Shown piece after piece: positions 58,411 through 61,333 of a stretch of 64,000 bases of DNA. The stretch is from Candidatus Woesearchaeota archaeon. GTDB taxonomy: Archaea > Nanobdellota > Nanobdellia > Woesearchaeales > GW2011-AR4. Where the stretch lies: positions 14,958 through 78,957 of the forward strand of contig JACPBQ010000003.1 of NCBI GenBank assembly GCA_016180235.1, written 5' to 3'. The notes beneath the pieces were generated by a model that did not search any database, was not told where the DNA came from, and was given only the letters and a program-made list of their open reading frames with translations. The translations under genes were made by a program, and so were the position numbers. Positions within the stretch are counted from its first letter, which is position 1. Each line of letters opens with the position of its first letter.

Positions 58411-60240
58411 TTATTCCACCGTAACACTCTTGCTTAAATTCCTCGGCTTGTCCGGGTCCAATTTCCTGTCAGTAGCAGCATAATATGCCAATAGCTGCAA
58501 TGGCACAACAGCTAAAATTGAGCTTAAAATATAAAGTGTATTTGGAATGTACAGGACATGGTCAGCCAGCTTTTTAATTTCTGAATCTCCGTCGCTTGCT
58601 ATTGCTATTATGATGCCTCCTCTTGCCTTGACTTCCTGAATATTGCCCAAAACTTTTTTGTATGTGTAGATGTCTTTGGTTGCCAAAACAACAACCGGCA
58701 TGTTTTTGTCTATCAAGGCTATTGGGCCATGCTTCATCTCAGCTGCCGGATATCCTTCTGCATGTATGTAAGAAACTTCTTTCAATTTTAAAGCCCCTTC
58801 CAGGGCAATAGGAAAATTAATGCCTCTTCCCAAAAACAGGGCATTATGCTTGTCTTTGTAGATGTTTGCTATTTTCCTTATCTCTTTTTCCTTGCTCAGC
58901 AAAGACTCCATTTCCAATGGTAATTTTCTTAATTTTCCCATCAGATCCTTTATTGTTTCTTTGTTTAATGAATCTCTTATACTGCTCATGTATAATGTAA
59001 ACAAATACAGGACAACCAGCTGTGTTGTAAATGCCTTTGTGGATGCAACCCCGATTTCAGGCCCGGCGAAAGTATACAGGACAGAATCAGACTCCCGGTC
59101 AATGGAGCTTCCCTTGGCATTGACTATTGAAAGTATTTTGGCTCCTTTCTTCTTTGCCTCCCTTATCGCAGCCAAAGTGTCTGCCGTCTCTCCTGACTGG
59201 GAAATCGCTATAACCAAAGTATTGCCGTTTATGATCGGGTTCCTGTACCTGAATTCAGAGGCATATTCAACCTCTACGGGTAATTTAGCCAATTCTTCAA
59301 GCATAAATTCTCCGGCTAATCCGGCATGCCATGAAGTGCCGCAGGCAACTATTATTATCCTGCTTATATTTTTTAATTCCCTCTCATTGAAATTTAGTTC
59401 ATTGGCTAAATTAATATTGCCATTTTCTATCCTTCCGTTCAAGGTTTCAGTTATAGCGCGAGGCTGCTCATGTATCTCTTTCAGCATGAAATGCTCATAG
59501 CCCGCTTTTTCAGCTAATTCAGAATCCCAGTCAATTTCGTTAATATTTTTTTTAATTATTTCCCCATCAATGTTTTTTATTTGAACATTATTTTTTGTCA
59601 ATATTGCCATTTCATTATTGTCAAGATAAATGACTTTGTTTGTATGCTTTAATATCGCAGCCACATCAGAGGCAATGAAGTTCTCATTTTTTCCAATTCC
59701 AACAATTAATGGGCTCTCATTCCTTGCTGCTATCAAAATTTCTGGGCTATCTGCGCAAATAACTCCCAAAGCATAGCTTCCTTCTATTTGTTTTAAAGCA
59801 GCGCTTGTTGCCTCCTCTATATCACCCTTAAAATTATCTTCTATCAGATGCGCAATAACCTCTGTATCAGTCAAGGAATTGAATTTGTGGCCTTTGCTAA
59901 TCAGCATTTCCTTTAACTCAGAAAAATTCTCAATAATGCCGTTATGCACGATGCTTATTTTGCTTTTGCAGTCAAAATGAGGATGGGCATTTTCTTTAGT
60001 TGGTGACCCATGAGTGCTCCATCTGCAGTGCGCCAAACCGATATTCCCTTTTAATTCAGAAAAATTAACTTTTTTATCCACTTCTTCGATTTTTCCCGCA
60101 TCTTTCTTAATAACCAATTTATTGCTATTTATGCAAACCATCCCAACTGAGTCGTATCCTCTATATTCCAATCGTTTTACGCCGTCTAGTAATTTATTCG
60201 CCACATTATTATCCGACACAATACCCACAATACCGCACAC
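58411..60240 (-). CDS. glmS: glutamine--fructose-6-phosphate aminotransferase
   Basis: GTG start; [51 protein letters not shown]. Confidence 0.97.
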   Translation of the reverse strand: MCGIVGIVSDNNVANKLLDGVKRLEYRGYDSVGMVCINSNKLVIKKDAGKIEEVDKKVNFSELKGNIGLAHCRWSTHGSPTKENAHPHFDCKSKISIVHNGIIENFSELKEMLISKGHKFNSLTDTEVIAHLIEDNFKGDIEEATSAALKQIEGSYALGVICADSPEILIAARNESPLIVGIGKNENFIASDVAAILKHTNKVIYLDNNEMAILTKNNVQIKNIDGEIIKKNINEIDWDSELAEKAGYEHFMLKEIHEQPRAITETLNGRIENGNINLANELNFNERELKNISRIIIVACGTSWHAGLAGEFMLEELAKLPVEVEYASEFRYRNPIINGNTLVIAISQSGETADTLAAIREAKKKGAKILSIVNAKGSSIDRESDSVLYTFAGPEIGVASTKAFTTQLVVLYLFTLYMSSIRDSLNKETIKDLMGKLRKLPLEMESLLSKEKEIRKIANIYKDKHNALFLGRGINFPIALEGALKLKEVSYIHAEGYPAAEMKHGPIALIDKNMPVVVLATKDIYTYKKVLGNIQEVKARGGIIIAIASDGDSEIKKLADHVLYIPNTLYILSSILAVVPLQLLAYYAATDRKLDPDKPRNLSKSVTVE

Positions 60241-60241
60241 T

Positions 60242-61333
60242 TTATTTACCTCTATACTTGTTTGTCAAGATTTCTAGTTTTTTCTTTTTTTCAGGATGTA
60301 AAAATCCTATTTTTTTGGCAAAAAGCAAGATATTATCTTTTCCACTAATTGAAAAATAATGCATTGTAGTTCTATCTTTGCTTTTGTGAACGAGAATTTG
60401 ATTTGGTCTTATGCCGACTTTTTCGACTGCATTCCTCAAATCATTAACCAAATCCCTATATTTTTGAGCTATAACAATCATATTCTTTTTAGGATAAATG
60501 TAACCTTCATCATCATATAAGGCTTGCAGGAACTTACAAATAAGATTCTCTTCTAATCCATATACAAAGCTAGGTATTCTTTTTTTGTCATTGTTAATTT
60601 CATACTCCAGAATATCATATAATATTCGCCCTATGCTTGTTTGCAGCCAAAGTTCATCCCCGTGACCGATTCTTTTCCTAAAGTATATTTTATTGCCACC
60701 AAAAACAGATTTAACATCATTTCTAAAAGCATTTAATAGAATTTCTTCATTATTCACATAAAATGGCCTATATTTACTTTCATTTTTGACTAAATGAATT
60801 CCACCATCTCCAATTATGTGGCCTAAAATTCTCATTAGCTCTTCCGATAGTTTAAATCTTTTTACCTCAATTGAGAAAGAATTCTTTGTCTTGAGTTGCC
60901 TAATATTATTTGTTAAGTATGATTCTTCGATTGATAATGCTCTAAATAATTTAAATAAAGTATCCAAATTAGCCCAATAATTCTTGCTTTTTAGGATTCT
61001 TTGCAAAGTTTGATAAGACGCTCCAATCTTTTTGCTCAATTCAACTTTGCCTGACTTTATTCTGGAACTTAGCAATTTTTGGAGATTTTCATCTATAATA
61101 GCATAATAATCCTCATTTTTGATAAAATTAAAAATTTTCATATTGCTACTTTGCATTTGCTGGAAATTTTTAACGAATGGAGAATTAGCGATATTATTAG
61201 AAGATTCAAAAACTTTGTCATTTGAAATAAAGTCATAAGAAGAATCATAACCCCTGTACTCGAGCTTTTTCAGCCCTTCAAACAGTATAGGCGCTGCATT
61301 TTTTTCCCCGACATAACCGATTATTCCGCACAT
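60242..61333 (-). mobile_element. LAGLIDADG (intein DOD-type) homing endonuclease gene fused to the first 31 codons of glmS
   Basis: N-terminus MCGIIG...[27 protein letters not shown]; motifs [10 protein letters not shown] and [24 protein letters not shown]; no Hint/splicing motifs seen. Confidence 0.88.

Follow-up and report, generated by a model that had tools for sequence, protein, structure and literature searches.

Why should one archaeal gene begin twice, with the same eight-residue peptide spelled each time in entirely different codons? The question is raised by a window of 64,000 nucleotides (nt) from a Candidatus Woesearchaeota archaeon (the whole stretch of DNA that was analysed, to which all positions refer), in which the gene glmS is directly preceded by an open reading frame (ORF) for an endonuclease that itself opens with a glmS start. 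On the minus strand the peptide LEYRGYDS is encoded upstream at 61241-61264 and downstream at 60148-60171; the two peptides are identical and 8 of 8 codons differ, with coordinates, strand and codon strings just as the original prediction for this locus had described them. That prediction went on to propose that the replacement 5' end of glmS is foreign, and that it was recoded either for immunity to the endonuclease or to avoid excision of the element by recombination. We find good support for the foreign origin and little for the recoding. The 5' part of glmS probably holds a free-standing homing-endonuclease cassette of the LAGLIDADG class that supplies foreign codons 1 to about 80 and would cut naive alleles in the DNA coding for the motif RWATHG. 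The two copies of LEYRGYDS would then be written in different codons because the endonuclease gene brought a foreign set of the first 80 codons with it.

Two glmS starts and their codons

The arrangement consists of two minus-strand ORFs, a 363-amino-acid (aa) endonuclease fusion (60242-61333) followed by a 609-aa GlmS with a GTG start (58411-60240), and the TAA of the former is separated from the GTG of the latter by 1 nt. According to Pfam, the downstream ORF carries the glutamine amidotransferase (GATase_6/7) and SIS domains of GlmS. Codons 1-31 of the fusion ORF (61241-61333, minus strand) are the resident glmS start, a displaced "stub" that ends in the upstream LEYRGYDS and is fused in frame to the endonuclease. 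The working glmS is made of two parts: the substitute codons 1-80 (60001-60240, minus strand), which hold the downstream LEYRGYDS and are delimited by an identity step, approximately unbiased (AU) tests and a codon score, and the resident codons 81-609 with the stop (58411-60000, minus strand), assigned from a tree of residues 81-530 and from the GATase_6/7 and SIS domains.

The foreign origin of the replacement 5' end, as originally predicted, is borne out by the disagreement between the trees of these two parts. A tree of residues 81-530 pairs the window, as sister, with a genome of the same genus (85% identity) within an 11-row clade with a support of 100, and in the tree of residues 1-80 the family clade (99/93) excludes the window. 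Grouping the window with the host clade for residues 1-80 is rejected by the AU test (p = 0.0074, or p = 8.7 × 10-5 without a mosaic protein, P0040, that is discussed below), and the test does not reject a control that keeps the host clade together with the window left out (p = 0.24). From about codon 81 the sequence is host-like again: against the same-genus genome, codons 1-80 have a DNA identity of 0.588 and codons 81-530 one of 0.774, and the change falls at codon 80/81. When the identity of residues 1-80 in the working GlmS is divided by that of the remaining residues, the quotient is 0.59-0.77 for 11 of 12 family relatives, and the lowest value in 66 control pairs is 0.80. The nearest sequences to residues 1-80 are 74% identical and come from other Woesearchaeota/Nanoarchaeota lineages. 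The upstream copy shows the reverse pattern, as expected if it is the resident one. Over the 22 residues after Met (residues 2-23), the identity of the stub to the family relatives L009 and L023 is 0.91, and to one other it is 0.86; the working copy reaches only 0.36-0.45 with these three, and 0.55 with its best match of all.

Two further comparisons agree with this division. In contigs from co-occurring organisms, the part that matches 61241-61315 is followed by ordinary glmS sequence (AGFCTISN), which puts the end of the stub's homology at 61241. Across 14 loci, similarity in residues 1-80 tracks the similarity of the endonucleases when the rest of glmS is controlled for (partial Mantel r = 0.43, p = 0.0012, a figure in which close pairs weigh heavily). 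On these comparisons, codons 1-80 of the working glmS are evidently foreign and the displaced stub is native. The genome G003 has the same upstream neighbours and no insert. We considered its glmS as the footprint of a lost cassette and dropped the idea, as residues 32-80 of this glmS show the same affinity as residues 81-530, and both fit its own clade.

How unusual is it for a resident and a foreign copy to differ in every codon of this block? The two copies are separated by 9 nucleotide differences, the Leu codon differing at two positions. Over codons 2-31 there are 18 positions at which both copies encode the same residue, and the codon is different at 13 of these and identical at 5, so the 8-codon run is the most extreme portion of a stretch that is close to saturation elsewhere too. 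Among 39 copies of the block from relatives and family loci, the background mean is 4.5 codon differences, and a difference at 8 of 8 occurs in 8 of 741 pairs, or in 3 of 666 when the window copies are left out; a comparison among unrelated glmS pairs had been put forward as a check, and such differences are indeed not common. Column codon frequencies give a probability of P = 0.004 (from an earlier set of 31 copies) and the codon usage of this genome gives about 0.013 (a hand product of frequencies). For a block that was picked post hoc, the run is rare, that is, uncommon and not unique.

The original prediction had also described the upstream codons as common in neighbouring housekeeping genes, in contrast to CGA, CTA and TTA in the downstream start, and this is only partly so. 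AGG is the commonest Arg codon (0.59), and CGA (0.02) and CTA (0.06) in the downstream start are rare; CTC, which was counted among the common codons, is rare (0.07), and TTA is not rare (0.20). Codons 2-31 of the working glmS have a codon score at the 0.8th percentile, and within the 8-codon block the downstream codons are no rarer than the upstream ones.

Six other loci retain both copies of the block, and 2, 4, 4, 4, 6 and 6 of their 8 codons differ, which argues against any systematic recoding; with the window included, the mean over seven loci is 4.9 codon differences, against the background of 4.5. The working block of the window lies 5-8 codons from the 15 family-type unlinked copies (6-8 from 14 of the 15), but only 2-3 codons from four other endonuclease-linked copies. 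When a foreign working copy of that type is set against a family-type stub, a difference at all eight codons falls at the upper end of the expected range. The difference at LEYRGYDS appears to be a by-product, in which a resident and a foreign copy of an invariant peptide stand in one locus with their silent sites saturated.

The endonuclease and its recurrence beside glmS

The remainder of the fusion ORF is predicted to encode a single-chain, two-motif LAGLIDADG homing endonuclease. Its core, residues 65-363 with the TAA stop at 60242-60244 (60242-61141, minus strand), has an N-terminal helix-turn-helix (HTH) part and two LAGLIDADG motifs. Pfam LAGLIDADG_3 matches at E = 1.3 × 10-10 with 41.8 bits against a cutoff of 22.5, covering residues 266-343 only, and HTH_3 gives a weak match (0.0083) that is under the Pfam cutoff. 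An AlphaFold2 model of the endonuclease part has a mean predicted local distance difference test (pLDDT) of 94.2 and a predicted template modelling score (pTM) of 0.91. The top Foldseek matches of the model are the Tli VMA intein endonuclease, 2cw7, PI-PfuI and I-DmoI, with template modelling scores to the target of 0.72-0.76 and a probability of 1.00, and the predicted fold is the pseudo-dimeric alpha-beta-beta-alpha-beta-beta-alpha arrangement of a single-chain LAGLIDADG protein. A sequence search of the PDB with the family profile returned nothing at E ≤ 0.01. The window protein has both motif 1 (..GDGG) and motif 2 (..DD[ED]G), as do 36 of 36 family proteins, and all keep the acidic residues, which we take to be metal-binding.

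These 36 homologues, at 42-59% identity, all come from metagenomes of the DPANN type (Diapherotrites, Parvarchaeota, Aenigmarchaeota, Nanoarchaeota and Nanohaloarchaeota). Many of them start at a Met that matches Met65 of the window protein. Remains of a glmS start are nevertheless widespread in the family: the start MCG opens 19 of the 36 proteins, even where the rest of the stub has been deleted, a LEYRGYD-like block is kept in 16, and 7 reach H-x-RWA. Between the stub and the core of the window protein lies an AT-rich linker or leader, codons 32-64 of the fusion ORF (61142-61240, minus strand). Its G+C content (GC) is 0.27, compared with 0.29 in the endonuclease core and 0.397 in the genome, and by composition the leader sorts with the cassette. 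The end of the leader resembles, in a by-eye comparison, a leader motif of the family (QKF-DIP ... MNILNF).

The position beside glmS recurs. A full-length glmS directly follows the endonuclease in 10 of 10 close relatives from species genomes and in 7 of 7 from metagenome contigs. One locus, L072, repeats L036, leaving 16 distinct loci, and two (L035 and L077) are cut by contig ends. The spacing from the endonuclease stop to the glmS start is -16 to +5 nt in all 16 parsed loci; L074 stands outside this parse and outside the 14-locus Mantel set, and its adjacency is taken from the neighbourhood listing. Nine loci, the window counted, have an in-frame stub, and in the 8 others the endonuclease ORF likewise sits between two copies of the glmS start. 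Decayed remnants of a stub lie 5' of the endonuclease in L033, L034 and L075. In two of these, L033 and L034 (3900-3983 in both), the remnant is out of frame and reads AGA/GGT TGG GCT AAA; judged by its sequence, it preserves the R-W-A junction at which a stub, now decayed, once ended, and it resembles the junction still intact in L032.

A search of 60 relatives of the window genome found no close homologue of the endonuclease, the best other match being 31% identical, and the linked glmS genes are scattered across the glmS tree. Patchy presence together with scattered hosts is the pattern of a mobile element. In one locus (L071, 2758-5731) the stub (MCGIVGVVSD...) is of the same type as the foreign N-terminus of the window, and the working copy of that locus is of yet another type, which suggests serial replacement of the glmS start by successive cassettes.

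Could the two starts have arisen without any transfer? The glmS start may have been duplicated in tandem on the spot, with fast divergence of the working copy and domestication of the LAGLIDADG protein as an HTH regulator of glmS. The strict association with glmS in 17 of 17 loci would suit a regulator, as would the HTH region, weak as its HTH_3 match is. Residues 1-80, however, are nearer to the native glmS of other lineages (74-80%) than to that of their own genus (49-55%), which indicates transfer and not new divergence. The foreign composition, the patchy distribution among the 60 relatives and over the glmS tree, and the retention of the catalytic acidic residues in 36 of 36 proteins likewise tell against a domesticated regulator, and we consider this origin very improbable.

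More distant relatives of the endonuclease (L037-L070 and L078-L105, 22-36% identity) are of another type, with a winged-helix-like C-terminal tail and no stub, and were kept apart from the family; LEYRGYDS is absent from the flanks in all of L037-L070. A separate, larger family of free-standing LAGLIDADG proteins from DPANN archaea and bacteria of the candidate phyla radiation (CPR) is made up of L037-L059, L078-L085, L003-L007 and L011; its members are 26-36% identical to the window enzyme and about 370-400 aa long, with an N-terminal "W-D/H-L/F-P-D/E" start and a winged-helix-like C-terminal tail. Pieces of the cassette itself (60084-60518 and 61213-61245) were seen at 99-100% identity in a freshwater metagenome run of another study (X5), where a 175-nt contig departs from the window sequence on both sides of 61213-61245; the same endonuclease may occur there in another upstream context.

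The inferred target and the LEYRGYDS block

Where in glmS would such an enzyme cut? The longest stubs of the family end at R-W-A, 44 codons past LEYRGYDS. All four stubs with DNA that reaches the motif read TGG GCT and then diverge, and in those four loci the working copy has Ser for Ala (three loci) or Thr for His (one). Of the 17 endonuclease-linked copies none has the canonical RWATHG, which 10 of the 15 unlinked copies keep (Fisher p = 4.7 × 10-5, among kin that are not independent). In the window the foreign tract ends just past this motif, which in the working glmS reads H71-C-R-W-S-T-H-G78 (60007-60030, minus strand), a Ser-for-Ala variant. From these patterns, we infer that the enzyme most likely cuts naive glmS alleles at the DNA coding for H-x-R-W-A-T-H-G, codons 71-78.

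Inteins of GlmS are inserted in the same motif, 4 codons upstream of the points where the stubs end. They occur in Methanocaldococcus lauensis (P0165) and in metagenomic GlmS; in P0159, P0160, P0161, P0163 and P0165, proteins of 1017-1104 aa, an intein with HTH and LAGLIDADG_3 lies between G-H and S-R-W-A-T-H-G. The inteins and the cassette share an ultra-conserved glutaminase motif to within 4 codons as well as a class of endonuclease (HTH with LAGLIDADG_3), and one may ask whether the cassette is a degenerate GlmS intein that lost its splicing domain, the gene being rescued by a duplicated start. Against such an origin, the window protein has no splicing domain (no Pfam match at E ≤ 0.01) and lacks a terminal His-Asn, a stop codon keeps its ORF apart from that of glmS, and the core is nearer to free-standing LAGLIDADG genes of DPANN and CPR (79-105 bits) than to the endonucleases of GlmS inteins (49-65 bits). 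The endonucleases of the inteins and of the cassettes are only 25-28% identical and are not mutual nearest relatives. Descent from a GlmS intein is not supported, and of the origins weighed here we give a decayed intein the least credence.

The immunity proposed in the original prediction concerned another site, the LEYRGYDS block itself, which lies next to the stub end and which the endonuclease would recognise, the substitute having been recoded at eight codons to escape cleavage. The rarity of the 8-codon difference among unrelated pairs (3/666) speaks for this, as does the end of the DNA homology between the stub and naive glmS at 61241, beside the block, and several family stubs lose recognisable glmS within about 10 residues after YDS. 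Within one subclade of the endonuclease, however, the stub of P0023 runs to I-A-H-T (residue 73) and that of P0009 only to YDSAGF, which marks the short stubs as products of secondary deletion. RWA is reached in seven proteins and at four loci, and the longest stubs run the full 44 codons on to H-x-R-W-A; the foreign tract extends to codon 80, not 31. The six other loci with both copies differ at 2-6 of 8 codons, with 6 of 8 shared in L028, and the seven-locus mean of 4.9 stays at the background of 4.5. All linked copies deviate at RWATHG instead. The block, moreover, lies about 135 nt from the inferred target and so is too far away for recognition. The LEYRGYDS block appears not to be the target, and recoding of the block for immunity to the nuclease is an improbable account of its codons.

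What, then, is the block to the cassette? The stub match ends at 61241, where the GC falls from 0.44 in the stub to 0.27, and the left junction between resident and cassette DNA is placed by these two signs at LEYRGYDS. Most simply, the junction is a crossover in the best-conserved stretch, and the block is probably both the place of the left crossover and a place where excision can happen. The protein P0040, encoded on a 7.7-kb contig, is a mosaic of three parts: its residues 1-23 are 0.83-0.87 identical to the family type, its residues 32-80 are 0.78 identical to the foreign tract of the window as against 0.43-0.57 to the family, and its residues 81-530 are host-like. It looks like a candidate scar of excision by recombination in the LEYRGYDS block.

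Excision of this kind would allow an addition to the cassette model, close to the second option of the original prediction. Since recombination between direct repeats would remove the endonuclease, cassettes without an identical stretch in their LEYRGYDS copies would last longer, and the difference at all eight codons would be an effect of survivorship. The mosaic P0040 would fit the product of a crossover inside the block, and the longest uninterrupted match of the stub to the working copy measures only 7 nt at this locus and 6-14 nt across all seven loci. At 60-77% identity, however, matches no longer than this are to be expected, the average number of codon differences over the seven loci equals the background, and P0040 is known as a protein only, its loss of an endonuclease being presumed. 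We regard such selection as a doubtful addition, although a less improbable one than recoding for immunity.

Several observations weigh against the reading of this locus as a cassette that homes at RWATHG and leaves LEYRGYDS as a by-product. No stub was recognised in three of the linked loci (L027, L029 and L073), and no close donor of the foreign tract was found, the best being at 74% protein identity. The association between the endonuclease and the motif is confounded by descent, since the 15 unlinked copies are mostly from the window's own family and the linked ones from several clades. The variant RWSTHG also occurs in 4 of the 15 unlinked copies, and in many of the 22 proteins read from the search with residues 1-80, whether linked or not. 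One row of the unlinked set, L019, is from G012, an unpublished genome, and without it the canonical count is 9 of 14; no conclusion depends on L019. The homology of the stub ends right beside LEYRGYDS here, and close to it in several other family members, which implies that the block has some role in the history of the element. Finally, a difference at 8 of 8 codons is rare (0.45-1.3%) and this locus is the extreme of seven, and chance alone, added to saturation, explains it only uneasily.

Proposed course of invasion, related systems and significance

The cassette would extend over about 60001-61240, beginning with a leader that is translated and continuing through the endonuclease gene to the substitute glmS codons 1 to about 80, which follow the stop immediately and are probably from another Woesearchaeota-like lineage. 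The substitute would join the resident glmS in frame at about codon 81, so that production of a complete GlmS would continue. What was displaced upstream, namely the promoter, the start codon and codons 1-31 of the resident gene, would have become the start of the endonuclease ORF. That the endonuclease would be translated from this hijacked glmS start is suggested by the stubs of the family, which still have MCG and an open frame however differently they are deleted inside. The working glmS most likely shares a transcript with it and is translated by coupling, since a Shine-Dalgarno-like GAGGT (60248-60252, minus strand), inside the 3' end of the endonuclease ORF, lies 7 nt before the GTG. 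In a naive glmS the enzyme would cut the RWATHG-coding DNA, and repair from the cassette-bearing allele would copy the leader, the endonuclease and the substitute 5' end together, the recipient's own glmS start becoming the new stub. The change from Ala to Ser in the motif of the substitute would render the new allele uncuttable.

A wider version of this scheme is speculative, and we would not expect it to hold in full. DPANN archaea might host a class of cassettes whose point of entry is the best-conserved active-site motif of an essential gene (in glmS, the motif of the GlmS inteins). The host would be spared because the substitute 5' segment carries an altered target, with Ser in place of Ala or Thr/Cys/Asn in place of His, and the promoter and start of the gene would be hijacked. 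Repeated invasion and excision at LEYRGYDS would shuffle the first 80 codons between lineages, and the complete silent recoding at this locus would be favoured as a block to excision.

Other features of the locus concern its surroundings and its integrity. A TATA-like box (TTTATATA) was read from the sequence at 61362-61369 (minus strand), 29-36 nt 5' of the resident glmS ATG. From its resemblance to the consensus we take it to be a putative archaeal TATA box, and it is presumed to be the native glmS promoter, now driving the endonuclease ORF. A scan for sigma-70 promoters and intrinsic terminators gave 0 terminator-like sites, but is inapplicable to an archaeon and its result was not used. 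The locus lies on a 132-kb contig in the 1.04-Mb genome of a tiny archaeon from groundwater. The stretch 59800-61500 is spanned without differences by independently built contigs of two sequencing runs, and the locus is not an assembly artefact, although these runs may be the source of this same DNA. Logan contigs of four runs contain no joint that skips the endonuclease, but such contigs drop rare variants and are silent on empty alleles. None of the runs listed for the locus is an RNA run. Beyond the promoter, on the plus strand at 61448-61938, adjacent ORFs of 108 aa and 55 aa (overlapping at 61771-61774) match one continuous region 5' of glmS in G003, and they look like a single gene split by a frameshift or stop in this genome.

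The closest parallels that we found are in fungal mitochondria, where mobile endonuclease ORFs ("mORFs") form gene hybrids in atp6 of Allomyces macrogynus and in atp6, atp9, cox2 and nad3 of Glomus sp. (PMC3630166). As far as that source describes them, a free-standing LAGLIDADG or GIY-YIG ORF is accompanied there, as here, by a foreign version of one terminus of the gene that it invades. This version is joined in frame to the resident gene and the native terminus is displaced as a duplicate; the displaced duplicate clusters with close relatives and the inserted terminus elsewhere, with high divergence at silent sites (PMC3630166). The fungal elements differ in that they replace the 3' end, leave the native C-terminus downstream and reside in organelle genomes (PMC3630166), whereas the glmS cassette replaces the 5' end of a chromosomal gene in a DPANN archaeon, its endonuclease ORF takes over the native promoter, start and first codons, and glmS restarts 1 nt past the stop. 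The fungal mitochondrial endonuclease ORF with a substitute gene end is the closest known kind, and the glmS cassette is a 5'-end version of it on an archaeal chromosome. In the mitochondria of Tremella fuciformis, too, endonuclease inserts are described as carrying an analogue of a host-gene fragment, and gain or loss of an insert swaps part of the gene for a foreign version, which may be compared with the mosaic P0040; unlike here, these are introns or downstream elements in mitochondrial genes, and the account, so far as it covers them, has no take-over of the start and no archaeal host (PMC7315562).

In archaeal glmS the inteins keep the gene whole by protein splicing, and the cassette does so by a new 5' end, with no splicing domain. 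Among phages, SegF (T4) and F-CphI (cyanophages) are reportedly free-standing homing endonucleases that act by "intronless homing" or by targeting an intron site. As in our model of the glmS cassette, their genes are said to lie by the target, the naive allele to be cut with co-conversion of flanking markers, and the carrier allele to be immune through sequence differences; unlike the cassette, they reportedly sit between genes, with no displacement or duplication of a gene end and no borrowed start codon. A literature search for homing endonucleases in glmS or in DPANN found no paper on the present arrangement, supplements aside.

If the cassette works as proposed, a homing endonuclease could occupy an essential prokaryotic gene and leave it functional in a third manner, by bringing a spare gene start, in addition to the self-splicing intron and the intein. 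The part of glmS that codes for RWATHG would be a testable target with natural resistant variants, and the enzyme a natural one open to characterisation. A repeat of a conserved peptide in which all codons differ would be read as the marker of a resident and foreign pair, and not of deliberate recoding, and a fusion of stub and endonuclease such as this one is easily miscalled as a truncated glmS. Cassettes of this kind would account for the mosaic 5' ends of glmS in DPANN archaea, and such mosaics would mislead both gene trees and annotation.

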